A stretch of DNA of 64,000 nt from an uncultured bacterium (lineage in GTDB: Bacteria > Omnitrophota > Omnitrophia > Omnitrophales > Abzuiibacteriaceae), in contig CAYLXA010000002.1 of assembly GCA_964387845.1 (NCBI GenBank), forward strand, positions 192,001 to 256,000, read 5' to 3'. Made by a program: the position numbers and the translations under genes. The notes beneath the pieces are model-generated. The model ran no database searches and had not been told where the DNA came from. It was given only the letters and a program-made list of their open reading frames with translations. Below, piece by piece: positions 2,907 through 54,219 of the stretch. Positions within the stretch are counted from its first letter, which is position 1. Each line of letters begins with the position of its first letter.

Positions 2907-3073
2907 GTTGAATGGCCGTTTCGTAGTAATTGGGTTGTGATCTCTTGAGGCAAGCACTCCTCTCCAGCATGTGCTCAGGCTCCTTTTGTTTGGAACAAGC
3001 CTTTGGCTGTCCAAGCGTTGTTAAAATGCGAAAGAGATCGGATTGATGTTGATAATTGATGAACATATTGATC

Positions 3074-4699
3074 CTAAACAGCGGGCTGTGCCGCTTTCTG
3101 AGGTGCGATGACCGCTGTCGGGGTCGAACTTGTCACTGTTGTGGCTTTCATCGGCTGACCTTGCGTGTCAACGATGGTTACCGTAATAAAAAACAAAGTC
3201 TCAATTTTTGAATTTTTATCTTCTCCTTGGTCTCTAAAGTGACGTCGAAACAATCTGCCTAAAACCGGGATTTTTGATGCGCCAGGCACCGAATCTTCTT
3301 GGACTTGCTCGGCATCTCGCGCCAGGCCGCCAATTGCAATTGTTTCTCCGTTATTAATCAATACCTGAGTTTGTGCTGTTGTGGTTGTGAAAGAAGGTGC
3401 GACGAAACTTGATGAAAACGTCACGTCATCACCGCGACTGCTCACTTCCGGACTTAGGTCGACTAAAATTTCATTGGCTTGATTGATATGCGGAGTCACG
3501 TTTAAAACAACTCCGATATCACGATATGTGAAGCCGGTTACCTCAAAGCTACCGGTTGTTTCGTTGCGTTCAAACGACGGAATCGGGATCTGGCTTCCGA
3601 CCTGAACTTTTGCGGTTTGATTGTTTAACACAACAATGCGCGGATTGGAAACGATCTTTGTATTATTTTTTGATCGCAAATACTTCAGAGTTGCGTTAAA
3701 TGAACTAAAATTTAAAGTTCCAAAAGTGAACGTGGGCCTGTGTGACGCAAGCGTTAAATCTGGCGAGCCAATCGGTGCAACGCTGGGATCATTAACAGTA
3801 TCGGCTACGTTACCTCCATAAAACGCGTTAAAATGCGTTAGCGGGTTCTGGTCGCGGGTACCGCTTCCCGGAGCAGACCACGGAAACGTGACCTGGCGAG
3901 ACGCTCCCGTTAAGGATCCTTGCGGCGTCCAATTGATACCCAAATCTTCATTCTGATCAAGCTGAGTTCTCACGATTTTTGCATCGATATAGACCTGAGG
4001 CGTGCTCTTATCAAGACTGCGGATAACCTGGCCGATTTTATACAAATTAGTAGGAATATCCGTAATGATTACCGTGTTGGCGCGAGGCACCGATTTCACA
4101 CGACCTCGCTCAGAGAGTATGTCTTTGATAGCCGACTCCACTTCTGCCGCTGTTGTGTAATTTAAAACAAACGTCTCGGTTATCAATTCTTCGGTTGCAA
4201 GATTCTCTTTTGTTGTAACTCTGACTATGTTCTGCTCGCGCTCATAAACATACCCATAAGTCCGCAAAACAACCTCGAGCGCCTTTTGCCAAGGCACATC
4301 TTGAAGTCTGATCGTTACCGTCCCATGCACCTCAGGCCCGGCAACAATGTTGACGCCGCTTTTCAAACTCAATACCCGCAAAACATTTAAAATGTCAGCA
4401 TCTTTAAAGTCTAAACTAACATTTCCCGGACTGGTCGTTCCTTCACTGGCTGTTTGAACTGCTTTTGTATCGGCTGAGGGTTCAGCTGACGGAACCTCTT
4501 CAGAAGGACTGTATTCGTAATTTTCATTACCCGGTGATAACTCTGTGCTGTTTTGATCCAGGGGCGCACTCGCTTCGTTGGTGGGTTCTTCGGCCGACAC
4601 TTTGGCGGGCTCGACTCCGATCACCAAAATCATAAGTATAATGATCCAGGCAATTCGTCTAATCATGCTGAAGCCCGGAAGCTGTTGTGGTTGTATCAT
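3074..4699 (-). CDS. pilQ: Type IV pilus secretin PilQ
   Basis: Signal peptide, an N-terminal region, and a C-terminal secretin domain (NPRIVVLNNQTAKVQVGSQIPIP...). It is the last gene of a pilMNOPQ-ordered operon. Confidence 0.8.
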   Translation of the reverse strand: MIQPQQLPGFSMIRRIAWIIILMILVIGVEPAKVSAEEPTNEASAPLDQNSTELSPGNENYEYSPSEEVPSAEPSADTKAVQTASEGTTSPGNVSLDFKDADILNVLRVLSLKSGVNIVAGPEVHGTVTIRLQDVPWQKALEVVLRTYGYVYEREQNIVRVTTKENLATEELITETFVLNYTTAAEVESAIKDILSERGRVKSVPRANTVIITDIPTNLYKIGQVIRSLDKSTPQVYIDAKIVRTQLDQNEDLGINWTPQGSLTGASRQVTFPWSAPGSGTRDQNPLTHFNAFYGGNVADTVNDPSVAPIGSPDLTLASHRPTFTFGTLNFSSFNATLKYLRSKNNTKIVSNPRIVVLNNQTAKVQVGSQIPIPSFERNETTGSFEVTGFTYRDIGVVLNVTPHINQANEILVDLSPEVSSRGDDVTFSSSFVAPSFTTTTAQTQVLINNGETIAIGGLARDAEQVQEDSVPGASKIPVLGRLFRRHFRDQGEDKNSKIETLFFITVTIVDTQGQPMKATTVTSSTPTAVIAPQKAAQPAV

Positions 4700-4721
4700 A
4701 GTGCAATTCCTTTATTTTGGA

Positions 4722-5075
4722 TTACTCTTCGGTTCTAATCGCTACCCAAAACTCTTTCTCGCCGTCCGAGAATGATACTCCATCCTTGGTGATCTTCTCA
4801 ACGCGATATCCGCCAACTTTTTCACCCAACTTGATAATCGTCCCTTCTATAACTGCCATCGATGCACCGCCCGGATCTACTATAACGCCTTCTAGCTTAA
4901 AATTGGTCGGTGTTTGAGCTGTGCTTTCAACGTGCTGCGGCCGGTCGGTTGAAACAAAAAAGGGGTCGCGTTTGTCGTGCCTATCATAACGAAATTTATC
5001 CGCAAGTGCTATTGAAAAAATCAACTGAGCCGCAACAATGCCAGTAAGCACTTTCATTCCGTGTTTCATCGTCAC
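4722..5075 (-). CDS. pilP: Type IV pilus assembly lipoprotein PilP
   Basis: Small protein with a signal/lipobox-like N-terminus and a beta-rich C-terminus; it sits between pilO and pilQ. Call rests on synteny plus size. Confidence 0.5.
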   Translation of the reverse strand: MTMKHGMKVLTGIVAAQLIFSIALADKFRYDRHDKRDPFFVSTDRPQHVESTAQTPTNFKLEGVIVDPGGASMAVIEGTIIKLGEKVGGYRVEKITKDGVSFSDGEKEFWVAIRTEE

Positions 5076-5698
5076 GCCTTCTGCGGTGCTTGCACAAACG
5101 CTACAACCTGGAACGTGCTTTGCAGCTTCTGAGAAACACCGCCCTTTGCAGATTGAATGGTCAGCTCACGTATGACCAGCCATTTACTGTAATTTTCGAT
5201 ATCATTCACAAAACGGCCGAAATTGTGATATCCGCTTTCGGCAGTTAGTTCGTAGGATGCGGTTAGATATTGTTGATTATAGGGAGCGGGCAGCTCGAAT
5301 TTTGCATCAACCGGACGAGATCCGACAATGTGAACTTTGTTTTTCTCTGCGATTTTTGACAACTCGCTGAGCAGTTGGTCAAGTTCTCGTATTTGAAGAA
5401 GCCCCGTCTTGGCAGTCACCAGCTCTTTTTGAAGATCGTCCATCTGTTTCTTTAAATCTGCCATCCGCATGACTTTTGATTTTGCGCCACCGAGCGTTGT
5501 TACCATTCGGTTCTTTTCATCTGTTAAGCTCCCGATCTTGACCATCAGCGGTATCAATATCATAAAAACCAGCACACAAAGCCCGCCGTATGTCAAAACT
5601 TGCTGAATGATTACTTTTCGATCGGTTTCAAAGCGTTTTTTGATACCCGCCAAAATATTTTTGGGGCTGCTTTTAGTTTTCGCCGGTGCTTGTGCCAT
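5072..5698 (-). CDS. pilO: Type IV pilus assembly protein PilO
   Basis: Single transmembrane helix, coiled coil, then a periplasmic domain; the position between pilN and pilP fits PilO. Confidence 0.55.
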   Translation of the reverse strand: MAQAPAKTKSSPKNILAGIKKRFETDRKVIIQQVLTYGGLCVLVFMILIPLMVKIGSLTDEKNRMVTTLGGAKSKVMRMADLKKQMDDLQKELVTAKTGLLQIRELDQLLSELSKIAEKNKVHIVGSRPVDAKFELPAPYNQQYLTASYELTAESGYHNFGRFVNDIENYSKWLVIRELTIQSAKGGVSQKLQSTFQVVAFVQAPQKA

Positions 5699-5707
5699 TA
5701 TGTCAAC

Positions 5708-6310
5708 CTAAACGGTTTGAAACGACGCGTTAAACTGCATGACTTCCACACTGCCCATTTGTTCGCGGTTTGTACTCATCACCACTTTAACTTTCCTCGC
5801 CTTATCTTTCGGTCCTGCATTGCGATTGATCGTTTCTTCCAGTTTTGCCTTTACCGAATTGACGTACTCTTGAATTTGTGCAAGCGCTACCTGCTTGGAA
5901 GTCACTTTTGTGTATCCCTCTAGATCAAAATGAATCGATGCCTTTTCGCGGCGAATGCGAAATTGAGAAAACCACATACTGTCCGGCACCAAATCGCTCA
6001 AGTAGTTCATGATTTCCGAAATGTATACTTGCGAGATAACATACTGGTCAAAAAAAGCCTTTTGCGGCTGGAGGTCTTTTTCGACCGTTTCCATAAATTT
6101 ACCCGCCTGCTCACTGGCAGATTTGATTGATTCGTGTTCATTATTCATTTTGCTCAGTTGGTTCCGAACCGCTATAAAAACAATTGCATGATAAAGAATC
6201 GCCAGAACAACTAGCCCATAGACAGTAATCACAATCTTCTGAACCGGGATTTTGGATGTCTTTTTCTCAACTTGCCGTAACTCGATCGGAAGTAAATTGA
6301 TCAGAATCAC
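5708..6310 (-). CDS. pilN: Type IV pilus assembly protein PilN
   Basis: N-terminal INLLPIELRQ motif (the conserved PilN 'INLLP' start), one transmembrane helix, and a periplasmic coiled coil. Confidence 0.65.
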   Translation of the reverse strand: MILINLLPIELRQVEKKTSKIPVQKIVITVYGLVVLAILYHAIVFIAVRNQLSKMNNEHESIKSASEQAGKFMETVEKDLQPQKAFFDQYVISQVYISEIMNYLSDLVPDSMWFSQFRIRREKASIHFDLEGYTKVTSKQVALAQIQEYVNSVKAKLEETINRNAGPKDKARKVKVVMSTNREQMGSVEVMQFNASFQTV

Positions 6311-7401
6311 GCCCCACCCCGCAGCGCAAGCCCTATGGCAACCGATAAGTAGGGTTGCAAAACTTTCAGCTTTGCATTGTCCGCATCAGATCCGACCTGA
6401 ATAGTATCAAGCGGATTCCATTGGGAGACTTTAAGTCCCGTTTCTTGCTCTAGAGTATTTGTCAGCAAATCAATTTGTGAAACCCCGCCGCTGACAAACA
6501 CGGCGCTTGGCGACTCTACATCTTGATGTTGGCTTTGAAAATAGTTAAGCGATAGCTTGATTTCTTGGATGATGGGGCCGAAGCTCGCCTTCAGCGCTTG
6601 CTCTTGCGCCGGATCCTCCCAATTTTTTTTAGTCTGAATCTGGTAAGCATCCAACTCATTAAGGCCCAGCTTTTTGGCCAAGGAAGCCGTAATGTCCGAT
6701 CCGCCCAGCGAAATATCGCGTGAAAACCTAAGGCTGCCATGATCTAAAATATTAATATTCGTATTGCGCGAACCAAAATCAATCAGAACCAAGCTTTTGC
6801 TTTTAGCATCCGGAGTTGTTTCGACAAATGCATTGGCAAATGCAATAGCATCTACATCGACTGCCGTAGGCTGCAACTCTGCTGCCTGAACAGCCGTGAC
6901 CGATTTCATCACTTCCTGCTTGCGCGCAGCGACCAAAATGACATCCATACTTTTCCCGGAGGCGCCTGATGAGCCGCCGCTATTCACGATGTGAAAGTCG
7001 AGAATCACCTCCGACATAGAGAATGGGATGTATTTTTCCGCCTCGTACTGAATGGCGCTTTCAAATTCCTCTTTTGCCATCCTGGGAAACGAAATAAATC
7101 TAAGGATCACGCCATGGCCCTTCATTGATATACAGACTTTTTTCTCAGTAATTCCGGCCGCTAAAAACAAATTTTTGATTTGAGCAGGTATTGGAATATC
7201 AGCTTTGAGCGATTCGTGCTCGGCTTTTTGTAAAATGATTTTATTCTGACTCATTGATAACTGAACGAGCGTGAGGGATGTATTGCCGATATCCAACCCG
7301 ATGCCGGACCGATTTTGCTGTGATTGGCGGGGGGAATCCTGCTTTTTGGCTAGAGGCGACAAGCGACTCAATTGCGACGACAACGCTTGAGGAATTTTCA
7401 T
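6307..7401 (-). CDS. pilM: Type IV pilus assembly ATPase-fold protein PilM (actin-like)
   Basis: GLDIGNTSLTLVQLS matches the actin/FtsA-like phosphate-1 motif. It is the first gene of the pilMNOPQ operon, and its stop overlaps the pilN start. Confidence 0.8.
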   Translation of the reverse strand: MKIPQALSSQLSRLSPLAKKQDSPRQSQQNRSGIGLDIGNTSLTLVQLSMSQNKIILQKAEHESLKADIPIPAQIKNLFLAAGITEKKVCISMKGHGVILRFISFPRMAKEEFESAIQYEAEKYIPFSMSEVILDFHIVNSGGSSGASGKSMDVILVAARKQEVMKSVTAVQAAELQPTAVDVDAIAFANAFVETTPDAKSKSLVLIDFGSRNTNINILDHGSLRFSRDISLGGSDITASLAKKLGLNELDAYQIQTKKNWEDPAQEQALKASFGPIIQEIKLSLNYFQSQHQDVESPSAVFVSGGVSQIDLLTNTLEQETGLKVSQWNPLDTIQVGSDADNAKLKVLQPYLSVAIGLALRGGA

Positions 7402-7546
7402 TAAACTAGGCTCAATAGTTGCATAGAGATGGCTTTTAATAAACAGCTTATATTATATCAAAGTATATATCGACATCCCTCCCGCTGAAATTGACTACTT
7501 TTAAGAGGTTTTTCTTGTGGGTCAAGGCATCTAAAAAACCGTTAAA

Positions 7547-9337
7547 TCATCGGTTTTTTTGAGTTTTCTGCATCTGCCTGGAGATTTTCTGAACTAAAGG
7601 ATCTTCCGGGTATAAATCGAGCAATTGATTGTAAAACCCATAGGCGCGCTCATAGTTTTGGGTCGATAGGTAGTATTGACACAACTGCGACAGGATCCCG
7701 CGGGAATCCGGATCAACCTTCAACCCCTCATTCAAAACAGCAACCGCCTCCTGGTCACGCCCTTGCCGCATCAGAAATTCGGCAAGATGCTGAAATGTCG
7801 GGACTGCGGGCTTTGTCTTCACAGATTGCCGGTAAAGCGACTCTGCTTCGGATAAATTTCCTTTTTGGTGATGGTATTGCGCCATCAAGTCCTCATACAT
7901 GAAAAGCAACTGGCCCGGCCTCCCCGGTTCAATCAGCTTCAAATAACGGTAAGCGTCATCCGGTTTCTGTAGAATTAAATAATTCTGTGCCTGCATCAAA
8001 ATATCTTTCTCGCTCGCAAACGGAAAGGATAGCACTTTGTCCAGGTATTCAATCGATTTTTGAATATCGCCCTGGATAAAATAAGTCACTGCCGAATTGT
8101 AGTAGAATCGAGGGTCGGGAAACTGGGAATTCGCCTGATCCGTTGCCCAAAGGTCTTGATTGTGCTGCCACTGTTTTACACGAAGAACGCTCAACCAAAC
8201 CAACGAAATTAAAAGCACTACCCCGATAAACGTCGCGATCCGCCAGCCGAATTTTGCACCGCGGCTTGATAGATATTTCTTCGCGATGATTTGCAATCCA
8301 GACATCCAAAATGCCGCAAAGCCAATAATGGGAATGTATAAATATCGATCATTCATGAGCGTTGAAATCGGAGTGAAAATGTTAGACACGGGGATCAGGA
8401 AAATAAAAAACCACCCGAACCAAAATGCAAGCTTTGGATTTTTTCGCCAACACCAACAAAAAAAGCATGCCAGAATAAAAATTCCGGCTAACGATGCAAT
8501 AACGGGAAACTCCCAAACCGACTGAAAAACGCGCGTGGTATAGAAAGTTCGCAGATTAAACGGATAAGCAAGATGAGCAAAGTAACGGAATAGAATAGTT
8601 GCCATGACCCAAAGATTGCTCCAAAAACCGCCGCCGCGGAATTGAAACTCCGTTGTCACGTGCAGCCCGATAGTCACCGCGGCCGAAAAGAATGCGAGAG
8701 CAAAGGTGCTTAGGTAAACAAATAATCTCCTTTTCCCTTCAAACGGTTTCTCAAATGCACGTTCATACGCGAAAAAGATAAGCGGCAAAACAACCACGCT
8801 CGGTTTTGATAACACCGCCAGGCCGAAAGAAATCACCGTGAACCAAAAACGCTTTTGTCTGAAACTGATGAAAGAGACAAGCATCCACAAAGTTGATAGC
8901 ACATTCTTCCTCTCGGCAATCCACACAACCGATTCAATTTGAACCGGATGCAGCGCAAACAGAAACGCGCTTACAACGGCGATAGGCAAACTTCCGATCA
9001 TGCTCAGGAGAAGGAAATAGACTACGGCGGTATTGATACAATGGATCGCAATATTGGTCCGGCGGTAGCCTTCTGGATTTAATTTTGAAAATTGATAATC
9101 AACAGCGTAGCTTGCGATTGTCACAGGAATATAGTTCAGGACATACTCCTTAGAAAACCAATGCTTCATCGACTCCAGGTCAATCCTTCGGATGTCGCCA
9201 TTTTGGATTACATATTCGTCATCGTCTAGATTTGTAAATTCATAGTGAATGGAAGGTGTGTATACAAACAAAACAAGCGCTACGACTGCCAGAAGCGGTA
9301 TAACTTTGTGGATGCTTTTGAAGTAGGATGTCATCAT
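7547..9337 (-). CDS. Polytopic membrane protein with a C-terminal TPR array (TMTC/PMT-like, DUF1736-type); candidate glycosyltransferase
   Basis: About 12 predicted transmembrane helices in the first ~400 aa, then TPR-like repeats (YLDKVL..., YYLSTQNYERAYGFYNQLL...). This is the same architecture as the TMTC O-mannosyltransferase-like family. It lies between pilM and pilA. Confidence 0.5.
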   Translation of the reverse strand: MMTSYFKSIHKVIPLLAVVALVLFVYTPSIHYEFTNLDDDEYVIQNGDIRRIDLESMKHWFSKEYVLNYIPVTIASYAVDYQFSKLNPEGYRRTNIAIHCINTAVVYFLLLSMIGSLPIAVVSAFLFALHPVQIESVVWIAERKNVLSTLWMLVSFISFRQKRFWFTVISFGLAVLSKPSVVVLPLIFFAYERAFEKPFEGKRRLFVYLSTFALAFFSAAVTIGLHVTTEFQFRGGGFWSNLWVMATILFRYFAHLAYPFNLRTFYTTRVFQSVWEFPVIASLAGIFILACFFCWCWRKNPKLAFWFGWFFIFLIPVSNIFTPISTLMNDRYLYIPIIGFAAFWMSGLQIIAKKYLSSRGAKFGWRIATFIGVVLLISLVWLSVLRVKQWQHNQDLWATDQANSQFPDPRFYYNSAVTYFIQGDIQKSIEYLDKVLSFPFASEKDILMQAQNYLILQKPDDAYRYLKLIEPGRPGQLLFMYEDLMAQYHHQKGNLSEAESLYRQSVKTKPAVPTFQHLAEFLMRQGRDQEAVAVLNEGLKVDPDSRGILSQLCQYYLSTQNYERAYGFYNQLLDLYPEDPLVQKISRQMQKTQKNR

Positions 9338-9350
9338 GCCTATAAAGCAA

Positions 9351-9382
9351 ACGGCACTTGGATATGATTCCCCAAGTGCCGT
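9351..9382 (-). terminator. Hairpin immediately downstream of pilA (11-bp perfect stem ACGGCACTTGG/CCAAGTGCCGT) followed by a T-rich tract
   Basis: Inverted repeat read directly from the sequence, 36 nt after the pilA stop. Pilin genes typically end in strong intrinsic terminators. Confidence 0.45.
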
Positions 9383-9417
9383 CGCCTTTTGTGAAACAGT
9401 TGCTCCAATACTGCTGA

Positions 9418-40828: not shown

Positions 40829-42601
40829 TTATTCTAAAGACTTTGTTTCGATTTTGTTTTTCAGAAACTCAACGCACTTAGACACGTCCATCGTACCCAA
40901 ATCTTTTCTGCCGCGTTCCCGGACGGCCACCTGGCCGGACTCGAGTTCGCGGTCGCCCACCACCAAAATATATGGGACTTTTTCGACTTCTGCCTGGCGA
41001 ACTTTATAACTGATTTTCTCCGGCCGCGCGTCCAAATCCGTCCGGATTCCCGATTGCAATAAGACATCAACCACTTTTCGAGCACCCGCCTCTTGCTTTT
41101 CAGAAATACACGCCACGCGCACTTGAACGGGCGCAAGCCAAACTGGGAATGCAGCGCCAAAATGTTCGACCAAAATACCCATAAAGCGCTCAACCGAACC
41201 GAACACTGCACGATGAACCATCACCGGCCGGTGGAGAGCGCCGTCTTCGCCTGTGTACTCCAAACCAAAGCGTTCCGGCATCTGGAAATCAAGCTGGATC
41301 GTTCCGCACTGCCAAATTCTACCAATGGAATCGGTAACTTCAAAATCTATTTTCGGGCCGTAAAAAGCGCCGCCGCCCGCATGGACATCAAAGCTGATGT
41401 CGTTCTTTTTCAGCGCTTCTTCCAAACCTTTGGTCGCCTTTTCCCATTGATCATCCGTTCCCATGGAATCTTTGGGACGTGTCGATAAATTGATCGCGAT
41501 TTTTGAAAATCCGAAGGTTTTATACATGCGCAAAATCAGGGCGATGACTTTTGAAATTTCTTCCTTGATCTGATCGCCGTAGCAGAAAATATGCGTATCA
41601 TCAATCGTAAACGCCTTGACGCGGAACAGGCCGTGCAAAACACCGGACAATTCATGCCGGTGCACAAGGCCGAGCTCGGACAGCCGAAGCGGCAGATCGC
41701 GGTATGAGCGCTGGCGCGAACGATAAACAATCGTGGAGCCCGGACAATTCATGGGCTTTAACGCAAAATCCTGGCTCTCGACTTTTGTGAAATACATGTT
41801 TTCTTTGTAATGAGCATAATGGCCGCTTTGCTTCCAAAGCTCGTCTTTCAAAATCATCGGCGTCCGGATTTCCTGATAATGCTCTTTTTCGTGCTCTTCG
41901 CGCCAAAATCGAATCAGCTCGTTATAAACAATAATTCCCTTCGGATGATAAAACGGGATTCCCGGCGATTCTTCATGAAACGTGAATAAGTCCAGCTCTT
42001 TGCCAAGCCGCCTGTGGTCGCGCTTCTTCGCTTCTTCGAGCTGTTTTAAATAATCATCGAGTTCTTTATCGGATGTAAACGCAACACCGTAAACACGCTG
42101 CAGCATCGGATTGTGTTCATTGCCGCGCCAATAGGCACCCGCCACATTGGTCAACTTAAAACCTTTGATCTCTTTCGTGTTCGTCACGTGCGGCCCACGG
42201 CAAAGATCCATGAATTTCCCGTTTGAAAAAATCGAGACTTTATCGTCCGGAATTCCTTCCACAATTTCGCACTTAAACTTTTCGCCGCGCTTTTTAAAAA
42301 GCTCGATGGCTTCTTTCTTAGATAAGAAGCTCTGTTTAAATTCCTGCTGCTCCCCGATAATCCGAAGACATTCCTTTTCAATTGCAGCCAAATCGTCATC
42401 CGTGAGCGGTTTTTCGACCTGAAAGTCATAATAAAAACCGGTTGCGGTTGCCGGGCCTGTTCCAAGCTTCACATTCGGATACAAAGCCTGCATGGCTTGC
42501 GCCAACACGTGCGCTGCGCTGTGCCGGATCCGATGGAGCCGTTCAGACATATTTTCCGATGAAGAGCCCTTTGGGGCAGAATTTGCTTGCGATTGCGGCA
42601 T
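40829..42601 (-). CDS. thrS: Threonine--tRNA ligase (lacks the N-terminal TGS/N1 domain)
   Basis: HSAAHVLAQA...GFYYDF (N2 editing domain), the class-II catalytic core, and a C-terminal anticodon-binding domain. The protein starts at the N2 domain. The true start may be the internal MSERLH at 42550. Confidence 0.85.
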   Translation of the reverse strand: MPQSQANSAPKGSSSENMSERLHRIRHSAAHVLAQAMQALYPNVKLGTGPATATGFYYDFQVEKPLTDDDLAAIEKECLRIIGEQQEFKQSFLSKKEAIELFKKRGEKFKCEIVEGIPDDKVSIFSNGKFMDLCRGPHVTNTKEIKGFKLTNVAGAYWRGNEHNPMLQRVYGVAFTSDKELDDYLKQLEEAKKRDHRRLGKELDLFTFHEESPGIPFYHPKGIIVYNELIRFWREEHEKEHYQEIRTPMILKDELWKQSGHYAHYKENMYFTKVESQDFALKPMNCPGSTIVYRSRQRSYRDLPLRLSELGLVHRHELSGVLHGLFRVKAFTIDDTHIFCYGDQIKEEISKVIALILRMYKTFGFSKIAINLSTRPKDSMGTDDQWEKATKGLEEALKKNDISFDVHAGGGAFYGPKIDFEVTDSIGRIWQCGTIQLDFQMPERFGLEYTGEDGALHRPVMVHRAVFGSVERFMGILVEHFGAAFPVWLAPVQVRVACISEKQEAGARKVVDVLLQSGIRTDLDARPEKISYKVRQAEVEKVPYILVVGDRELESGQVAVRERGRKDLGTMDVSKCVEFLKNKIETKSLE

Positions 42602-42697: not shown

Positions 42698-45600
42698 TTA
42701 CGCCGCCTGTCGAATCGCCTGACGGCCCTGTTCTTCAATATAGAGCGCTTCGATTCTATCAAACATGATCGTAACGACACCCGTGTAATGGTCAAATTCG
42801 AACCCGAGGCTTTTTAAGGGAAAAAGAAGCCGCGCCTGCTCTTCGGGGCTCTTATTTTTAAGGATTTTCGCCAGGGTGCCCGCCGCGCGAAGAATCGGAA
42901 TGGTAAGCTCTTGAATGGCTGCTTTACTTCGAACGCTTTCCCAATTGGCAAACGCGACAAAAACATTTGTCAAAGCCGCGAGCTGACTTTCGGTTTCTGC
43001 CATCGCAGCACCATCTGTTGTTTGCGCCAAAGGAACGAACGGCATATCGGAAATCCGCAGATTGCGTGAAAGTGCACCAGCCGCCTGCGCACGCTCCACC
43101 GCATCCGTAATAGCTTTTACAAATTCATTTCGAATTTTCTGGACATGCATTCTCGCTTCTGTATCCGGAGCCGAAAATGCGATTCGCAATTCAGAGCGGG
43201 ACAATTGATCGAGACTCATTAAGAGAGCTTTAGCCAACGCGCCCTTGCCGTCAACCGTCACGGTCGGGATTCCGATTTTTACATCCGGCGTAATAAGAGC
43301 CTCGATTGCAGCTTCAATGCGGCTTGCAATGATAGCACCTGCGTCGGTCACTTGAACTGCTGCAGGAAGAATGGATGTGCTTGTGGTTAGGCTATTTAAA
43401 GTCGGTTCTACAACTAAACTGAAAAATCGAGAATTTTGTACCGCTAGAATATCAAATACATTATCAGAAACCGTTGTGGCCACTATTTTTGAAGCGGCCT
43501 CACGCAATTCTGAGCGATTCTCTTCCGCTTTTGCTGCAAGCTCCAGCGCTTCTTCGCTGAATTCCACAGTGTCTTCTTGCGGCTGTCCGTTCACTTTCAC
43601 TTGCGCCGGAGACTTTCGCGGCGCAAACTGCTGAATCGGTTTTCGATCAGGATTGATATCCACAACCGGCGGAACCGGCTGAACCGCCGCCCGAAGTTCG
43701 GATTTCTTAGTTTTTGTCGAATCTGATACGGGCGGAGCAGATTCAGCGGGCGTCGAGTCAGTTTCGCTGCTAATTCCTGCGGTTTTCTCAGCCTCTGCCC
43801 TTACCTTAGCGACCTTCACCCATTCAATGAAATCGAGCATGGGCCTTTCAGGATTTCGTATTTTAAGATCACCTTTTAGCAATCCATTAATAATTTTTAC
43901 CGCCAATCGCTTCATTTGGTCATCAAATTCAGTGCTTTTAATAATAAAGCTCTGATTGCTTTCTGTCATGTTAAGCGCCATTAGCGCAATGCCCAATAAA
44001 TCGCGCGTTGCATTCAACGGAAATTGAATGGTTTTCGATAGTTTTGGAAGGCGGTCGTTCAGTTTAACCATGACACCGCTTCTATTAAAAATGATGTCGA
44101 ATTGTCTATCAGTCAGGTTCATGTCCTTTTTCAATTGCTCCGGATTTTCTTTCGTTGAAAAAGCCAGCGCCCAATCAAGGACAACTGGTCCGTTATCCGT
44201 TTCAATGATATTAGGCAGGCCCAGATCATTGTGAACGACACCGGCCTGATGTGCATAATCGATGATTTGAGCGACTTGGAGCAATAAATCTGAAGAGCGA
44301 ATGGGTTTGGTTCCCGGTTTTTCAAACCGAAGCCAAAGCTGAGGGCGGTTATTTTCCGAGCTCCCAACCACGCCGCTGCGGGCACTAAATGGAAACCCTT
44401 CTTGCCATCCATTCGGATTAAGAAGTTTGATGAACTCATTTTCTCTGACGAGCAAGCGATGGTGAATTTTTATTTCATTTTCAAGACGCCTGTTGAAATC
44501 GTCCTTTTCATCCTCAGCCACACCATTGTTATAATCCTCCATTCCCGGCAGAACTTCCTTGACTATATTGAGCTCCCCGGTGCGCTCATTAATTACAAGG
44601 GTAATGTGAGATACCTCATGGGGACGTGGCGGACGGCTTCTTTTGATGACTTCAGCGTAATATAACTGCTTGCGAGGCTTGAAAGAAAAACTCCAGACCA
44701 TTCGGCTTCTTACCTTAATATCATTTGCATTTCTTACTTTAATAATTTTATTCTCTTCGATATACCGAAGCGGCGTATCGCCGTCATGATCTTCCCAGAT
44801 ACGTCCGCGTATTGTTTTGCGCGATAATTCAAACACGCGCGCCCGCACGCGCTCTTCAGACTCGGAAACGATAAGCACGCGCCCGCTCAAAATCAAAGCG
44901 TTCACGATGTATGGCGTATGAACCGGAGAATCAGCGTCTATAATCATTCGCTGGCGTTCGTTTCGATCTTTTATAATTTGTTTGTCGTTCAGCACAACAA
45001 TGCGATCCTTTTTTGGAATTCCTAACTTGTCGGCTAATTTTGTCATCCAGAAATGTTTCTTTAGCTGATCTTTTGTTAAACCGAGTTCATTGTCTTTATG
45101 CCGAAGCTCGGAGCGGCTGGGTTCGTCGCTATCCCTCCCTGTGCCGGACGGAAGCATATTTGGCCAGAAACGTGGCGTAATGTGCCAAGCAACCAAAAGC
45201 CCGAATCCTGCCGAAAGCGACACTGTCGCAAGAATTGAATAAACCATTTCCGGAATTTGTTGGGCAAGAAGCGGAACATTGAAGCGCAGTTCGGATTTCT
45301 GAGGCGTTAAATTACCGGAGATCACCTCAGCTTGCTTTTCCTCAATGATCGCCGTTGCTCGGCTGGAGGCTTCGATTTGCCGGTTTTGATCATCAATTAA
45401 AGCACTGGCTTCACGCGCCTTTTCCGCCAACTCGCTTGCCGAAGTGCTCTTGGGTAGAAATGATGAGATTTGTTTGAGACGGCGAAGTTCGACACGTTGA
45501 GCAGCCACCCGTTTGGGATTTTGTAGGATGTGTCTACGCTTAGAAGGATCAGAAGCAATCGGAAACTCAAACCGCGGAAGGTCATCGACATAAGCAATTA

Positions 45601-47446
45601 ACTTCTCTTTGCCATCAATTATGGCAGTGCGTATTTCTGATCGCTGTGTCAATGTAGCGACATCCGTGACTTGAGAGAAAATAGCGTCCAATTTTCTAAT
45701 TTCACTGCGTGTAAAAGCACGGTGTTGAAGCGCTAAATTATTGGGGTAAAGTGCCTGTGCGACTTTTAATCTCTCGTCCTTCGATACCAAGCTTAGAAGC
45801 TCCCGGATTTGAGATTGGTCAAACATGGTTTTGCGCGTTCCGAGCATGGATTCTAGATAGATTTTCTCAACACCTTCGACGGACGAAAGCCGCGGGCTGA
45901 TTTCGATATACGAAAAGTTTTCCTTTGCGAAACGTTCCTCCAGGCCCTCCGAGTGAAATCCGCCGCTCACCAGAATCGCAGACTGACGGCCGAGTTTTTT
46001 TAAAACTGACTTTGCATTTTCAACAAAATGTCTCTCGCGCGAAACCGCGCCTTGATAAAAATCAATTGCGGATTCGAAAATATCATCAAGTTCGGCGGAA
46101 ACTTTTATCGAATCAGGACTCACATCCCGTCTCTCGGCCAGTGTTTTTATTAAAAAACTGGGGCTGAGCGAATCTTTTTGGTACATCGCCACCGCCACTT
46201 CATTGCGGACGAGCTCGAGCTTGAGCAGCTTTTCGAGCAGGATTGATTTCTGAATCAAATCCACCAGCGATTTTTCCTGATCCGATTCGATCAGCACTTT
46301 AAAAACAGCGGCAACGGCCTTTTCAATTTCATCAAAAAACTGAATGCCGTCAATTTCGCTTTGGAATATCAAGGTCGCCAAAACTTTCGACAGTTCGGGA
46401 AAATATTCAAACTCAAAACCGTGCGGCGATAATGCTTGATACAAATCCTCCAGAAAAACTCTCGGCAATCTTGCGCCAAGCCCCTTCACGCCGCTTTCTA
46501 ACTTCCAATCGTCAAGGCCTGCTTTTAACTCCGCCGGCACATCCAGCGCGTGGACGAGTGATCGCAAGCTGTCCAACTCGCCTTGCGCTTCGTCTAACTT
46601 AATTTTAGACTCCAAATTTTGCGCTTTGAAAAATCGGACCAGCATCGGGTATTCAATTTGAGATTTTGCGTGTGCTATATCCATCTCGAGCCTGCTCAAT
46701 GCAAACCGCTTAATGACGTTCAAAAAGCCGATCAAATCCAGCCGTTCATCGCGCCAGGCCAGCCATGAGCGTAAAAAATCTTTTAAATCTTTATTGAAAT
46801 AACGCGATCCTAGGACTTCAATCTGTCCGTGGAGATTTTTTAAATAACGATCAACATTGGTGCGATGCGACGCGACTTTTTGGAAAGTTTTGAGGTTTTT
46901 CGCAAACGCTTCTAAGTTTTCAACGCCTTCCGCATGAATGCTCGGATCGTCCAAATGATCCAGCAAAAATAATTCGGCGCCCGAAAGGTCCCCGTTCTGC
47001 GCCATGTAATCGGCGATTTTTTTGTTGAGATCTTCATCATCGAAGAAACGGAATTGCTCCGGGTCAAGCTCGGATGAAGCTGCTTCTAAAAGAATTGTTT
47101 TGATTCCGTAGGCTCCGGAAATGTGCTCGATAATTTCCTTGGTATGCCGCTGCGCTTCATAGCTTCCGTGCGCATCGCGGATATGAATGATCGCGGGCGC
47201 TTCGTTACCTGCAGCTATTACCGGCCGGACCGACTCAACGCGGCCGAGCGATTCCGGGATACTGAGATCTAAAATTCTAAAATACGAGGTTTGTGCAGGT
47301 TCTGCAAAGTTGGCGATTTGAATGGTGGCCGGTGTTGCAAGCGCGGGGTCAATTGAAGAAGTGGCAAGAACCGTCAGAATAAGAAAACTTGAAAGCAATC
47401 TTACTGTAAACTTATATCTATTATTTCTCAATATTTTATCTGACAT
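42698..47446 (-). CDS. Giant (1582-aa) signal-peptide protein with one internal transmembrane helix and a protein-kinase-like catalytic motif set; function unknown
   Basis: Signal-peptide-like N-terminus (FTVRLLSSFLILTVLATSSIDPALA), a ~780-aa N-terminal region, and a hydrophobic helix (VYSILATVSLSAGFGLLVAWHI). The C-terminal region contains AEVIK (VAIK-like Lys), HNDLGLPNII (HxDxxxxN catalytic loop) and DWALAF (DFG-like), consistent with a protein-kinase-like fold. I recognise no other family. Confidence 0.6.
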   Translation of the reverse strand: MSDKILRNNRYKFTVRLLSSFLILTVLATSSIDPALATPATIQIANFAEPAQTSYFRILDLSIPESLGRVESVRPVIAAGNEAPAIIHIRDAHGSYEAQRHTKEIIEHISGAYGIKTILLEAASSELDPEQFRFFDDEDLNKKIADYMAQNGDLSGAELFLLDHLDDPSIHAEGVENLEAFAKNLKTFQKVASHRTNVDRYLKNLHGQIEVLGSRYFNKDLKDFLRSWLAWRDERLDLIGFLNVIKRFALSRLEMDIAHAKSQIEYPMLVRFFKAQNLESKIKLDEAQGELDSLRSLVHALDVPAELKAGLDDWKLESGVKGLGARLPRVFLEDLYQALSPHGFEFEYFPELSKVLATLIFQSEIDGIQFFDEIEKAVAAVFKVLIESDQEKSLVDLIQKSILLEKLLKLELVRNEVAVAMYQKDSLSPSFLIKTLAERRDVSPDSIKVSAELDDIFESAIDFYQGAVSRERHFVENAKSVLKKLGRQSAILVSGGFHSEGLEERFAKENFSYIEISPRLSSVEGVEKIYLESMLGTRKTMFDQSQIRELLSLVSKDERLKVAQALYPNNLALQHRAFTRSEIRKLDAIFSQVTDVATLTQRSEIRTAIIDGKEKLIAYVDDLPRFEFPIASDPSKRRHILQNPKRVAAQRVELRRLKQISSFLPKSTSASELAEKAREASALIDDQNRQIEASSRATAIIEEKQAEVISGNLTPQKSELRFNVPLLAQQIPEMVYSILATVSLSAGFGLLVAWHITPRFWPNMLPSGTGRDSDEPSRSELRHKDNELGLTKDQLKKHFWMTKLADKLGIPKKDRIVVLNDKQIIKDRNERQRMIIDADSPVHTPYIVNALILSGRVLIVSESEERVRARVFELSRKTIRGRIWEDHDGDTPLRYIEENKIIKVRNANDIKVRSRMVWSFSFKPRKQLYYAEVIKRSRPPRPHEVSHITLVINERTGELNIVKEVLPGMEDYNNGVAEDEKDDFNRRLENEIKIHHRLLVRENEFIKLLNPNGWQEGFPFSARSGVVGSSENNRPQLWLRFEKPGTKPIRSSDLLLQVAQIIDYAHQAGVVHNDLGLPNIIETDNGPVVLDWALAFSTKENPEQLKKDMNLTDRQFDIIFNRSGVMVKLNDRLPKLSKTIQFPLNATRDLLGIALMALNMTESNQSFIIKSTEFDDQMKRLAVKIINGLLKGDLKIRNPERPMLDFIEWVKVAKVRAEAEKTAGISSETDSTPAESAPPVSDSTKTKKSELRAAVQPVPPVVDINPDRKPIQQFAPRKSPAQVKVNGQPQEDTVEFSEEALELAAKAEENRSELREAASKIVATTVSDNVFDILAVQNSRFFSLVVEPTLNSLTTSTSILPAAVQVTDAGAIIASRIEAAIEALITPDVKIGIPTVTVDGKGALAKALLMSLDQLSRSELRIAFSAPDTEARMHVQKIRNEFVKAITDAVERAQAAGALSRNLRISDMPFVPLAQTTDGAAMAETESQLAALTNVFVAFANWESVRSKAAIQELTIPILRAAGTLAKILKNKSPEEQARLLFPLKSLGFEFDHYTGVVTIMFDRIEALYIEEQGRQAIRQAA

Positions 47447-47824
47447 AAAATATAGTTTTTTAACGTCTTAAATAACTAAAACAAAGAATCCTCCCTTCTC
47501 TGAAAAATTTTTGGGATTGAACTGATAATAAATTATGCCAGATTAGTGAAAGCAATACAAGGGTGTATTGATTTGCTAACCTGTTGTTTTATATGGACTT
47601 ACAGAAATTTCTTCTGTGGAGGTACTTTTAAACTGCAAAATAAGTCAAAATTTACTTAGATTTTGAACTTTTTTTGCTGTTTGCTTTTGCCTTTAAACGC
47701 TTAATTCTAGCGCGCCGGCGGGCTCTTTTTTTTCGTTTTTTTGCATCGCGTGTCATGTTTTCTTCCTTCCTTAATTAATAAATACTGCGATGCGGTGCGC
47801 GGCATCCTTGCCCGCGACAGCATC

Positions 47825-47863
47825 GTATTTTTGCATCGGCAAAAATGCGCGCTAGAGGACTCG
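47825..47863. repeat. 39-bp direct-repeat copy A: the last 17 nt of tRNA-Val plus 22 nt of its 3' flank
   Basis: GTATTTTTGCATCGGCAAAAATGCGCGCTAGAGGACTCG is identical to 48008..48046, which spans the 3' end of the intact tRNA-Val. Confidence 0.8.
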
Positions 47864-48007
47864 GCGCCTTCCGCTCGCAACCCTCGCTCCAGGTCGGCCA
47901 CCCGCTCCTCAAATCTGACGCTCAGCTTACTTCGCGTCATGAGGAGCTCCCTTCGAGTCCTCATCTTGCAGTGCCGTAGAGAGCTTTCCTTAAACTCTCA
48001 CGGCACA

Positions 48008-48046
48008 GTATTTTTGCATCGGCAAAAATGCGCGCTAGAGGACTCG
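48008..48046. repeat. 39-bp direct-repeat copy B (overlaps the 3' end of intact tRNA-Val)
   Basis: Exact match to 47825..47863. Confidence 0.8.
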
Positions 48047-48102
48047 AACCTCTGACCCCCACCATGTCAAGGTGATGCTCTAACCAACTGAGCTAAGCGC
48101 GC
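48029..48102 (-). tRNA. tRNA-Val (anticodon GAC), 74 nt, CCA not encoded
   Basis: Reverse complement GCGCGCTTAGCTCAGTTGGTTAGAGCATCACCTTGACATGGTGGGGGTCAGAGGTTCGAGTCCTCTAGCGCGCA. It has a 7-bp acceptor stem, a D-arm GCTC/GAGC, an anticodon loop TTGACAT, and a T-arm AGAGG-TTCGAGT-CCTCT. Confidence 0.85.
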
Positions 48103-48402
48103 ATAACTCCTTATATACGTGTTAACTTCTTTAATTTAATATACTTACAGAATAATTTATTTATTTTCATGTGACTCCTAGAACTCCTGAAATACCCCAA
48201 AATATCTCAATCCTTATCAGAGTTTTATCAGAGTGACTATAGCCAAAAATAATTCACCGCTGACTCTCACCTTATAAAGAACGTGCTCCACCTTAGCACT
48301 TCGTGATTTGGAAGCAAGTCGAGAAGGGATTTTATTAGAAAGGAGTCAGATTAGCAAGTTCTAATTGCGGGATTTTAAGCTGTCGGATTGCTCGTTTGCA
48401 AG

Positions 48403-48633
48403 CTAAAGCTTCCTTGCGACGTGAGGCCTTCTTGCTGATATGCAGTTCTGCGCCAGCCAGGAATTGATTCTATCTCCGTGATATCGGACAGCTCGGCCAA
48501 GCTTCAAATGAGGTATCAATTTTCGGCTGGTTAATTTCCGGACATGGCTTTTTGAGATATTTAATAAAATAGCAAGCTCACCAGCAGTTAAAAGGTGTAT
48601 CGGCCGGCCGTCGCTGTTCTCTTGGTTTTCCAT
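48403..48633 (-). CDS. Small HTH_17/excisionase(Xis)-family DNA-binding protein
   Basis: LLTAGELAILLNISKSHVRKLTSRKLIPHLKLGRAVRY is a typical MerR-like/phage-excisionase HTH. The start was taken at the internal Met (MENQ...); the track ORF extends to 48681. Confidence 0.45.
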   Translation of the reverse strand: MENQENSDGRPIHLLTAGELAILLNISKSHVRKLTSRKLIPHLKLGRAVRYHGDRINSWLAQNCISARRPHVARKL

Positions 48634-48704
48634 CTGATCCTGGCCTAACCTCCTTTCATAATTTGTCAATCGAACCAGCACGTGCCATAACTGGAGAGGC
48701 TTCC

Positions 48705-52061: not shown

Positions 52062-53462
52062 TTACCTGGCCAAGGGTACTGTTTCTTGATCCAGAGCAAC
52101 TTTTGCTTGCCAACCGAATCGGTTCTTAATTTCAGAGGCAAGATGTTCTGCGCCAAGCGGTTCTCCGTGGACAATATAAACGGAACCAGGCGGTTTTTTA
52201 AATCCTGAAAGCCATTTCAAGATTTCCTCTTTGTCCGCATGAGCAGAGATACCTTGGAGAATCTCGACTTTCGCACAAACCTGAACCTCCGCGCCATGAA
52301 TCCGAATTCTTTTGGCGCCTTCTTGCAACGACCTACCGCGAGTTCCGGCTGCCTGGAAGCCAGCCAAAAGAACCGTAGTCTTTGGGTCAGGAAGTCTTAA
52401 TTTTAAATGATGAAGAATACGGCCGCCGGTTGCCATGCCGCTTGCGGAAATAATGATCATGGGGCCTGAAAGATCATTAAGCTTCCTTGATTCCTGAGGC
52501 GTGCGTACGAGATGGTATTGCTTGCAGCACAAAGGACATTTGTGCTCATCCATTAATGTTTTCATGTCCAAATCGTGATCTTCGGGATGTCTGCAATAAA
52601 TATCTGAAACGTTAATAGCCATAGGGCTGTCGACATAAACTGGAAGTTCCGGAATTTGTTTTGCTTCTTCAAATTGACGAATCATCCAGATCAGTTCCTG
52701 CGCTCTTCCCACAGCAAACGCGGGTATGAGAAGAACGCCTCCTTTTTGCGCTGTCTCATTGATCACGCGCACAAATTCATTTTCTGGATCAGGTGGATGA
52801 ATCCGGTTGCCGTAAGTGGATTCGACTAACAAAATATCCGCTTCCGGAACAAATTCCGGATCACAAATCATCGGCTGATTCCAGCGACCCAGATCGCCTG
52901 AGAAAACGAGCTTTATAGGGCTCCCTTCTCCGATTTGCAACTCCACAATCGCAGAACCCAGAATGTGACCCGCGCGCCAAAATGAGCCCGCGATGCCTTT
53001 TGCAATTTGAAATGGTTTGTGGTATTCAACCGACCGAAGATATCCAAGCGCTTTTTCGGCGTCTTCTGTCGTGTAAAGAGGAAGAGCCGGTTTATGCTTG
53101 GAGCAACCGTGGCGATTTGCAAATTCCGCCTCTTCCTCTTGCAAATGAGCCGCGTCAAGAAGCATGACATTAAGAAGATCCTTTGTGCCCGATGTGCAAA
53201 ATATCTTTCCACGGAATCCTTCACGTACGAGTAAAGGCAAATAGCCCGAATGATCAATGTGTGCATGACTCAAAGCAATCGCATCCAAATCGGAGGGATT
53301 AAACGGCGGCTTCGCCCAATTCCGCAAGCGGAGTTGCTTCAAACCTTGAAAGAGGCCCGCATCAAGCAAAATCTGCGAACGACCCATCCGGATCAAATAT
53401 TTGGAACCCGTCACAGTTCCGGCACCCCCAAAAAATGATAAGGTTGGAGAAGATTTATCCAT
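52062..53462 (-). CDS. Metallo-beta-lactamase-fold beta-CASP family hydrolase (RNA-metabolising MBL type)
   Basis: LDAGLFQG...SHAHIDHSGYLPLL (the HxHxDH motif), the beta-CASP region, and the C-terminal motif set. The start was taken at MDKSS; the track ORF has 45 extra N-terminal codons. Confidence 0.7.
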   Translation of the reverse strand: MDKSSPTLSFFGGAGTVTGSKYLIRMGRSQILLDAGLFQGLKQLRLRNWAKPPFNPSDLDAIALSHAHIDHSGYLPLLVREGFRGKIFCTSGTKDLLNVMLLDAAHLQEEEAEFANRHGCSKHKPALPLYTTEDAEKALGYLRSVEYHKPFQIAKGIAGSFWRAGHILGSAIVELQIGEGSPIKLVFSGDLGRWNQPMICDPEFVPEADILLVESTYGNRIHPPDPENEFVRVINETAQKGGVLLIPAFAVGRAQELIWMIRQFEEAKQIPELPVYVDSPMAINVSDIYCRHPEDHDLDMKTLMDEHKCPLCCKQYHLVRTPQESRKLNDLSGPMIIISASGMATGGRILHHLKLRLPDPKTTVLLAGFQAAGTRGRSLQEGAKRIRIHGAEVQVCAKVEILQGISAHADKEEILKWLSGFKKPPGSVYIVHGEPLGAEHLASEIKNRFGWQAKVALDQETVPLAR

Positions 53463-54219
53463 GCTTTGTCGCCCTTGAAACATAACACGAAGGATCCGCC
53501 TCAAACTTTTGCGCACAGCCTTGAGAACAAAAGAAATAGATTTTGTTCTTGTGTATTTTTTTAACAACCGCCGTTTTGAGAAGAATCCACATCCCACAAA
53601 CAGGGTCGAGTTTCATGCCAGGTTTCGGATGATGCATCACACCCAAAGCGCTCTTGCCATTAAAATGGGACGGTTTCTTGAAATGTTCCTTTTGATAAAC
53701 GTTGATTAATCGTTTAATCAAATTTCCCGGTTCTTTTGAGTAAACAACACGGGCGCCGGTTTCCTTCTTGCAAGCAGCCAGAATATCCCTTGCGATGTTG
53801 CTGATTCCGCCCGTTCCAGTGAGCACACCGATTAATTTTCCTTCATCGTAAGCGATCGCAAGCTCACCCAAAGTTCCGCTCCGGCCGCCAATGATCACGA
53901 CGATATCCGAGCTGCGGATATTCACAACTTCGCGCCCCATAAGACCGCTTCCGGTATAAATCAGGATGTCGTGAAACTCGGTTGGGGAATGATACTTATT
54001 CACATGCTCGTCAAGACTAAGAGCAGGGGAAATTCCGACAACGATTCCATCTTCTTGCTTTGCCCCGCAAGCTGAAGCAAGTGGAAGGCCGGGACATGCT
54101 CCTGTAATGAGCACGCAGCCATTCTTCGCAATCGCTTCTCCTAAAAGGTGAGCTTTCTCAAGATGGAATTTCTTGATTTTCCCTGTAGCGCCGCCCATCA
54201 CACCGATTTTCACTCGCAT
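53455..54219 (-). CDS. Rossmann-fold LOG/SLOG (TIGR00725-like) domain fused to a C-terminal YHS metal-binding domain
   Basis: IGVMGGATG...IGGRSGTLGELAIAYDEGKLIGVL is the SLOG/TIGR00725-like pattern. The C-terminal DPVCGMWI...YFFCSQGCAQKF is the YHS domain consensus (DPVCGM...FCSxxCxxxF). The start was taken at MRVKIGVMGG. Confidence 0.55.
   Translation of the reverse strand: MRVKIGVMGGATGKIKKFHLEKAHLLGEAIAKNGCVLITGACPGLPLASACGAKQEDGIVVGISPALSLDEHVNKYHSPTEFHDILIYTGSGLMGREVVNIRSSDIVVIIGGRSGTLGELAIAYDEGKLIGVLTGTGGISNIARDILAACKKETGARVVYSKEPGNLIKRLINVYQKEHFKKPSHFNGKSALGVMHHPKPGMKLDPVCGMWILLKTAVVKKIHKNKIYFFCSQGCAQKFEADPSCYVSRATKHG

Follow-up and report, generated by a model that had tools for sequence, protein, structure and literature searches.

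What kind of protein is encoded by the very long gene that lies between thrS and a tRNA-Val gene in an uncultured bacterium of the phylum Omnitrophota, and does the gene belong to that place? The question arises from a 64-kb stretch of DNA (positions 192,001 to 256,000 of contig CAYLXA010000002.1, assembly GCA_964387845.1), the whole of which is referred to as the window; coordinates are counted from its first nucleotide, and the genes, domains, residues and motifs given below are encoded on the minus strand. An earlier note on this DNA had described an open reading frame (ORF) of 1582 amino acid (aa) residues as a receptor-like protein kinase inserted between the two genes. The ORF was found as described, with 1582 codons and a stop codon at 42698..47446, and its start, ATGTCA, is shared with a related locus, L001. 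Its sequence and architecture place the protein, almost certainly, among the small members of an unnamed and very large family of modular proteins from Omnitrophota. The reading that we favor, with a probability of about 0.5, is that it is a membrane-anchored modular carrier with a hydrolase head outside the membrane, a kinase-like module inside, and recognition sites with the sequence RSExR.

A word-index search identified 24 homologues, all of which had residues of about 60–560 in common with the query; some also shared the last 270 or so residues, and the middle parts differed. A search of 1.84 billion representative proteins with a profile of the common N-terminal domain, hereafter the head (alignment A3), matched 9,928 representative clusters at E ≤ 0.001, of which 6,897 reached E ≤ 1e-30. 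The head always started near residue 40, and the best 150 matches were 554–7,670 aa long. All named sources, which cover a minority of the sequences and are the basis of the taxonomic statements, were Omnitrophota, and the one named close relative was annotated "hypothetical protein". No model in Pfam or NCBIfam covered the head. The family statistics given below refer to 158 proteins of the 9,928, namely the 24 word-index homologues and the best-scoring representatives.

The middle parts of the relatives (numbered P0002 and onward) contained, according to Pfam, a protein kinase, a glycogen phosphorylase, a pyridoxal phosphate-dependent enzyme (PALP), glucosamine-6-phosphate isomerase together with PIG-L deacetylase, or Exo_endo_phos together with NTP_transf and APH. 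At the same position between tRNA-Val and thrS, a kinase-like middle was found in the window and a glycogen phosphorylase in P0011, encoded at locus L007; the modules have thus been exchanged at a stable locus. Judged from these comparisons, the kinase-like module of the 1582-aa protein is one of many interchangeable modules.

The region that was considered unassignable in the earlier note contains the conserved domain that defines this family, an alpha/beta domain whose core resembles those of TIKI, Ere, ChaN, TraB, and RRSP (aa 60–535; 45842..47269). The AlphaFold2 model built from 23 sequences had a predicted local distance difference test (pLDDT) score above 90 over aa 60–535 and showed an alpha/beta fold with a parallel beta-sheet core, in which strands 85–91, 117–120, 171–174, 489–495, and 512–518 were flanked by helices and a helical insertion (aa 178–460, about 280 residues) separated the third and fourth strands. 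Five residues were invariant in 107 diverse family members with identities of about 30%: H93 (47168..47170), a candidate catalytic histidine in a DAH motif directly after strand 85–91; E121 (47084..47086), a candidate catalytic glutamate; E176 (46919..46921), a second glutamate at the end of strand 171–174; the basic residue R470 (46037..46039), comparable to R4001 of RRSP; and H498 (45953..45955), a candidate catalytic histidine in GGFH, which represents a GxxH motif after strand 489–495. The head thus carries the two histidines, two glutamates, and basic residue of the TIKI superfamily, whose catalytic set was given in the RRSP structure paper as two histidines, two glutamates, and a conserved arginine (PMC6254334). 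The spacing of 28 residues between H93 and E121 is identical to those between H3902 and E3930 of RRSP and between H85 and E113 of Bcr135 (PMC6254334), and the spacing between R470 and H498 is 28, compared with 29 between R4001 and H4030 of RRSP.

The structural relatives of the head model were, with their scores, an Ere-like Bcr135 entry (2rad, 9.8), HopBA1 (5t09, 9.0), a further Ere-like entry (2qgm, 8.9), the erythromycin esterase EreC (6xcq, 8.5), ChaN (2g5g, 8.1), a TraB-family protein (8bqs_DQ, 8.1), and RRSP (5w6l, 7.5). All seven listed are TIKI-superfamily folds or relatives; HopBA1, Bcr135, ChaN, and the Ere family are counted among the relatives of this superfamily (PMC6254334). These results from the model suggest that the head is likely a remote TIKI-superfamily hydrolase. 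It differs from the established members (Tiki1/2, TraB/PrgY, GumN, ChaN, EreA-C/Bcr135/136, HopBA1, and RRSP) in that it belongs to no curated profile, its first acidic residue is variable (D/N/T91), and it is fused to 1–7 thousand residues (kaa) of other modules.

Outside the head, the protein contains seven copies of a short motif, [RK]-S-E-[LIVM]-R, compared with 0.023 expected from its composition, and none of 20,000 shuffled sequences reached three copies. The copies are RSEIR at aa 580–584 (45695..45709) and 602–606 (45629..45643), KSELR at aa 717–721 (45284..45298), just ahead of a transmembrane helix, RSELR at aa 778–782 (45101..45115), just past this helix, KSELR at aa 1248–1252 (43691..43705), RSELR at aa 1311–1315 (43502..43516), and RSELR at aa 1417–1421 (43184..43198), the last of which lies inside a predicted strand of the C-terminal domain. 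The position of the fifth copy is kept in P0002 and P0003 and that of the sixth in P0002, P0003, P0005, and P0007, and these two copies, at 1248 and 1311, are retained in relatives with identities of 26–33%. Six of the seven are in linkers that were modeled with low confidence (pLDDT below 65). When all six frames were scanned across the window, the motif was confined to the 1582-aa ORF. A repeat or recombination site at the DNA level was considered as its origin and ruled out by the codons of the seven copies, which differ synonymously; because the codons vary in this manner, selection acts on the peptide.

The motif is a property of the family. It occurred 296 times in the 158 members, compared with 6 times in shuffled sequences, with up to 14 copies per protein and the first copy after the head at a median residue of 659. 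RSELR, RSEVR, RAEVR, RSEAR, and RSEMR were the commonest 5-mers outside the head, and a broader form of the pattern occurred about 550 times in the sequence beyond the head, compared with two occurrences in the 75.8 kaa of the heads themselves. A scan of a genome collection with an alignment of closer sequences yielded 14 related loci (a scan with the single protein as the query gave no match); in the window and these loci, the head-bearing ORFs (26.7 kaa) contained 44 motifs, compared with 2 in the other ORFs (55 kaa). The motif also marks module borders: when paralogues were aligned by BLAST, the proportion of alignment ends that had a motif no more than 10 aa away was three times that of random positions, and the copies at 778, 1248, and 1311 lie no more than 10 residues from the start or end of segments that the query shares with P0004, P0005, and P0007. 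In two motif-rich relatives, Pfam recognized almost no domains.

Phosphorylation of the serine in R-S-E, by the kinase-like module or another kinase, would be one way in which these sites could regulate the linkers. In favor of this, position 2 of the broader R[SA]ExR motif is most often serine, and the protein has a kinase-like module of its own; however, alanine variants are abundant (RAEVR 65 + 23 times, and also RAELR), and most motif-bearing relatives have no kinase module. We regard phosphorylation sites as a highly improbable explanation.

A second linker motif, xxSLG ([AGSQ][AQSG]SLG), was found 144 times, compared with 9 times in shuffled sequences, in forms such as AASLG, GASLG, and ASSLG, often followed by Q/T/D-E. 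Its carriers are family members from P0012 to P0109, for example P0035, P0101, and P0109. The two motifs are almost mutually exclusive, with 83 proteins carrying RSExR only, 24 carrying SLG only, and 5 carrying both.

The kinase-like module (aa 783–1247; 43706..45100) is supported by profile evidence, its AlphaFold2 model being of low confidence, and combines a small alpha/beta unit next to the membrane with a divergent core that resembles protein kinases (about aa 890–1190). The catalytic-loop and DFG-like motifs were located where they had been placed before: HNDLGLPN at aa 1072–1079 (44210..44233), an HxDxxxxN loop of the non-RD type in which H1072, N, D1074, and N1079 are in register with the loops of kinases, and LDWALAF at aa 1090–1096, in which DWA (aa 1091–1093; 44168..44176) is equivalent to DFG and D1091, as the magnesium-binding aspartate, is aligned with the DFG, DFT, or DL of kinases and paralogues. 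On the other hand, the lysine of AEVIK (K935), proposed earlier as the VAIK-like residue, was not favored by alignment to Pfam-positive paralogues. In this alignment, K963 in NIVKEV (44558..44560) corresponds to the VAK/IAK lysine of P0002 and P0003 and is probably the beta3 lysine; its partner in helix alphaC may be E989 or E991, based on alignment to the same two proteins by MAFFT, and the coverage by hhalign starts at alphaC.

The direct matches of the module to Pfam were all below threshold (Pkinase, 14.8 bits for a threshold of 31.7; RIO1, 17 for 22; APH, 16.3 for 23.2), and the sub-threshold matches to RIO1, APH, Pkinase, Bud32, PknD, and LanKC converged on aa 1048–1118. P0004 is the closest relative of the module (E = 2e-42), and the profile of the query and P0004 (A4) matched 302 distinct PDB chain sequences at E ≤ 1 with a best value of 3e-4; nearly all matches listed were protein kinases or Bud32-type kinases, and all fell on alphaE, HxDLxxxN, and DFG. 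P0002 and P0005 exceeded the Pfam threshold for Pkinase, with 44.8 bits for P0002. A profile of the segments of P0002, P0003, and P0005 (A7) matched more than 1000 distinct PDB sequences at E ≤ 0.001 (best E = 5.5e-9), those listed being protein kinases, and hhalign aligned A4 with A7 at a probability of 97.6% and an E-value of 4.7e-12; the alignment covers 200 columns, beginning at alphaC and extending past alphaF. Because of this alignment and the Pfam-positive paralogues P0002 and P0005, kinase homology is well supported transitively. It would be an improbable coincidence if the kinase motifs were chance matches in a non-kinase domain or scaffold, since independent libraries match the same stretch of 50 residues in register, the alignment to the paralogue segments spans 200 columns with two of these passing the Pfam threshold, and the order of the predicted secondary-structure elements, with five or six strands, then a long helix, alphaE, and two short strands, agrees with that of kinases. 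We consider from the profiles that the module is very likely homologous to kinases; whether it is catalytically active is evenly balanced.

The N-terminus (aa 1–36; 47339..47446) resembles a signal peptide, as had been noted, in the sequence and in the family consensus: judged by eye, MSDKILRNNRYKFTVRLLSSFLILTVLATSSIDPALA|TPA is organized like a Sec signal peptide, with a basic n-region (K4, R7, R10, K12, and R16), a hydrophobic core of 14–16 residues, and ALA|TP. The single internal hydrophobic helix was also confirmed, at aa 734–756 (MVYSILATVSLSAGFGLLVAWHI; 45179..45247), with a Kyte-Doolittle value of 1.86. A topology consisting of a signal peptide, an ectodomain, a single transmembrane helix, and a cytoplasmic module is therefore plausible for the 1582-aa protein.

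Short, strictly conserved peptides in disordered linkers at module borders are the usual signature of recognition sites. In the arrangement that we favor, the head would act as a hydrolase on the outer side of the cytoplasmic membrane, the kinase-like module would be on the cytoplasmic side, and the RSExR linkers would be recognized for processing or docking of the chain, so that the protein would act as a small "polyprotein" or module carrier and not as a classical ligand-binding receptor kinase. Proteolytic processing is the simplest reading of the sites, because the motif is located in border linkers and is tied to a hydrolase head from a superfamily with endopeptidases (Tiki and RRSP). The proposal that the motifs are proteolytic sites is tentative, at somewhat less than even odds, and it is unlikely that the head itself is the processing protease. 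Slightly more doubtful still is the specific form of this proposal, in which the TIKI-like head would be a site-specific endopeptidase for RSExR (xxSLG elsewhere) and would split the modular proteins into separate enzymes.

The main rival to processing is an intact receptor-type kinase, that is, a classical single-pass receptor Ser/Thr kinase with extracytoplasmic sensing and a phosphorylation signal, in which the RSExR copies are linker, docking, or hinge elements that are not cleaved. The signal-like N-terminus, the one transmembrane helix, and the retention of D1074, N1079, and D1091 in the kinase-like module are in its favor, and Tiki1/2 and PrgY/TraB likewise combine an extracytoplasmic TIKI domain with membrane anchoring. 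However, the same head and tail flank metabolic enzymes in relatives, and the head is therefore not a kinase-specific sensor; the closest kinase-bearing relatives differ in topology; the module has no glycine-rich loop and is below every curated threshold; and this reading would not explain why the motif is so extremely enriched and lies at module borders. The receptor kinase is, in our view, a possible but rather unlikely reading. The topology of this type that the earlier note had proposed holds as plausible for this protein and fails as a conserved feature of its close relatives; similarly, the kinase-like domain that it had proposed is supported by profiles as a divergent module, and the bilobal fold was not recovered by structure prediction.

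Several observations weigh against the modular carrier with a hydrolase head and processing sites. As for the head, Foldseek against the PDB gave nothing significant, although Ere-like entries recurred in the list, and neither the profile of the whole head nor that with the helical insertion removed found a TIKI protein among PDB sequences. The Pfam profiles PF01963, PF04187, and PF05139 gave no match above threshold on the head; the sub-threshold matches were to PF04187 (ChaN) in 3 of 22 and 4 of 19 members (best E = 0.0018) and to PF05139 in 1 of 22. The closest structural relatives, the Ere family, are esterases and not peptidases. As for the sites, the predicted topology places four of the seven motifs in the cytoplasm and the head on the other side of the membrane, where it would be unable to cleave these four once the chain has been inserted. 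Between the two motif types, RSExR and SLG, the heads were 31% identical, compared with 32–36% within the classes; because these values are close, there is no sign that the head has co-evolved with the motif. As for the module and the membrane, no GxGxxG-like ATP loop was seen in the sequence upstream of K963, the pLDDT was 30–45 over the kinase-like region, and a fold search of the C-terminal half recovered generic Rossmann-like matches and no kinase fold, as expected from so poor a model. P0002 and P0003 carry two hydrophobic segments after the head, and the topology is accordingly not conserved.

The remaining parts of the protein are as follows. The post-head region (aa 536–717; 45296..45841) was modeled with low confidence as helices and a small beta unit and had no family match. 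Between the fifth and sixth motifs lies a conserved peptide of about 58 aa (PQEDTVEFSEEALELA..., aa 1253–1310; 43517..43690); a FlgM-like identity of this peptide was considered and dropped, Pfam giving no support even at E ≤ 10. The C-terminal alpha/beta domain (aa 1330–1582; 42701..43459), which is Rossmann-like and ends in ...RQAA-COOH, was predicted confidently (pLDDT of 80–90) with a generic Rossmann-like fold, and a fold search gave no specific match. The complete tail domain was confined to a subfamily of 14 of the 158 relatives. A terminus of Ala-Ala or Ser-Ala after an amphipathic helix was more widespread and was found in 116 of the 158 (for example, ...AIRQAA, ...TLAQAA, and ...RILSAA; nucleotides 42701–42706 in the window), and two of the 38 long ORFs in the window had a terminus of this type. 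Such ends recall, by analogy, C-terminal recognition tags, either ssrA-like or ligands of tail-specific proteases or PDZ domains.

The gene stands at the head of an ordinary thrS-infC-rplT-pheS-pheT cluster, with thrS (40829..42601), the first gene of the cluster, as its conserved downstream neighbor and tRNA-Val(GAC) (48028..48103) as its conserved upstream neighbor. The earlier note had assumed that it interrupts the interval between the two and that a duplicated tRNA 3′ end is a scar resembling an attachment (att) site. The duplication is present, as a direct repeat of 47 nucleotides comprising the 3′ end of tRNA-Val and a hairpin (47817–47863 and 48000–48046; 94% identity), and a gene of the excisionase family with a helix-turn-helix domain is located at 48403–48681; both would fit mobile-element cargo integrated at tRNA-Val. 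However, both copies are located on the upstream side of the gene, at a distance of 183 bp from each other, and hence do not bracket it; no integrase is present; and the GC content of the ORF (0.465) is the same as that of the window (0.459). Furthermore, the order tRNA-Val(GAC), head-domain gene, thrS recurs in L001, a locus from a Candidatus Omnitrophica metagenome-assembled genome (UniRef organism "Candidatus Abzuiibacterium crystallinum"), together with the duplication of the tRNA 3′ end and a −10-like element, and the tRNA-Val side and the thrS side are retained in L004 and L007, respectively, from other Omnitrophota assemblies. Because of this synteny, the shared duplication, the equal GC content, and the lack of bracketing repeats and an integrase, a mobile element is unsupported and already contradicted; we consider it an extremely remote explanation. 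The hallmarks of an integrative element, namely an integrase, bracketing att repeats, deviant composition, and absence from related genomes, were not found for this gene. From the comparison of loci, the gene is resident at this place and not an insertion, and the reading of the duplication as an att-like scar is not supported.

The 250 bp ahead of the start codon are AT-rich, as had been reported, with a GC content of 0.29. A candidate sigma70-like promoter, TTGTAT-17 nt-TGGCATAAT (47532..47560), was read from the alignment, and its −10 region and flank are conserved in L001. A small ORF at 47652–47756 encodes 34 aa, is extremely basic (MTRDAKKRKKRARRRARIKRLKAKANSKKSSKSK), and is preceded by AAGGAAGGAAG; a similar basic mini-ORF (MSRDWKRRMKKARRKANLKRRQQRRKAARKKS) was found at the same place in L001, and the ORF may represent an unannotated small protein. 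The segment between the two copies of the tRNA-Val 3′ end (47864–47999, minus strand) had a GC content of 0.59, compared with 0.46 for the window. The RNA structure predicted for 47840–48027 had a minimum free energy of −80.5 kcal/mol (z = −3.9), and none of 200 shuffled sequences was as stable. A 13-bp hairpin right after tRNA-Val (47967–48008) is nearly identical in L001, and an Rfam search of the tRNA-proximal region matched the tRNA alone. The excisionase-family gene (48403–48681) encodes a 92-aa protein with a MerR-like helix-turn-helix directly upstream of tRNA-Val, with no integrase nearby. In L001, head-domain genes are arranged in tandem at 1611–5348 and 5974–12315 with the tRNA-Val gene between them; the family is thus multi-copy within genomes.

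Elsewhere in the window, the gene at 52065–53612 encodes a ribonuclease of the beta-CASP/metallo-beta-lactamase type, for which the best NCBIfam match was the model of Cas14 from type VII CRISPR systems, together with the model of archaeal aCPSF1. The score for the Cas14 model, 383 bits, was far below the cut-off of 800 bits, and the product is probably an RNase J/CPSF-like enzyme and not a CRISPR protein. Of the 38 stop-to-stop ORFs of at least 200 aa in the whole window, 37 were on the minus strand, and the GC skew was negative in all but a few 1-kb windows, which fits a single replichore with a strong gene-strand bias.

Omnitrophota are uncultured and probably host-dependent nanobacteria. 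Long and giant multi-enzyme proteins of this phylum, "Archaeovorins" and related ones, have been described in two preprints (bioRxiv 10.1101/2023.11.21.568195 and 10.64898/2026.06.07.730766). The present family shares with these giants the Omnitrophota origin, an N-terminal signal or transmembrane segment, and unrelated enzyme domains (sugar metabolism, kinases, and hydrolases) strung together in one polypeptide, and the protein studied here is likewise encoded by Omnitrophota, belongs to a family with many unrelated modules, and has a signal-like N-terminus and a transmembrane helix. It is much shorter, at 1,582 aa compared with the classes of at least 10 or at least 30 kaa in the preprints. 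The authors of the preprints asked whether such proteins remain one chain or are cut into pieces, and suggested cleavage that was attributed to C39 or S8 peptidase domains. Term searches of the two texts turned up neither TraB nor SELR, and no passage was found on a head domain common to the proteins, on conservation of the C-terminus, or on a linker motif that recurs. A literature search for the motif strings returned unrelated software names only.

In the way it might work, and in that respect only, the family resembles MARTX toxins, which are large and have conserved ends, between which unrelated effector or enzyme domains are arrayed and can be exchanged. The linkers between MARTX effectors are cut by a built-in protease, to which the processing proposed here would be analogous, and the MARTX effector RRSP is a TIKI-fold endopeptidase (PMC6254334). 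On the other hand, searches with Pfam and NCBIfam found neither RTX repeats nor the cysteine protease domain here, the N-terminus is signal-like and not a type I secretion signal, and the modules are enzymes of a housekeeping type. Viral polyproteins offer a further analogy to the proposed processing. The kinase-like module shares with PknB-type, Bud32, and RIO kinases the alphaE helix, the HxDxxxxN loop, the aspartate equivalent to that of DFG, and a single-transmembrane, receptor-like layout; it differs in having HND instead of HRD and DWA instead of DFG, in the missing glycine-rich loop, in its long insertions, and in scores below all gathering thresholds. In PknB-type kinases, moreover, the extracytoplasmic part is a PASTA or sensor domain, and here it is hydrolase-like.

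The proposal of a receptor kinase was thus partly right and of modest consequence, and the main interest of the locus is an uncharacterized, very large family. No account of the family-wide hydrolase-like head, the short, strictly conserved linker motif, or the conserved C-terminus was found in the two preprints, Pfam, or NCBIfam. Very long multi-enzyme proteins are an open puzzle of the Omnitrophota, into which a member of 1.6 kaa provides a tractable entry. The head profile serves as a sequence handle that unites about 10,000 protein clusters in one family, and the head, the motif, and the C-terminus together make the question of processing experimentally simple. If the head is an endopeptidase, this family would represent a cellular polyprotein system in bacteria with a defined cleavage motif and a previously unrecognized family of proteases, and the giant proteins of Omnitrophota would perhaps be cut in the same manner.

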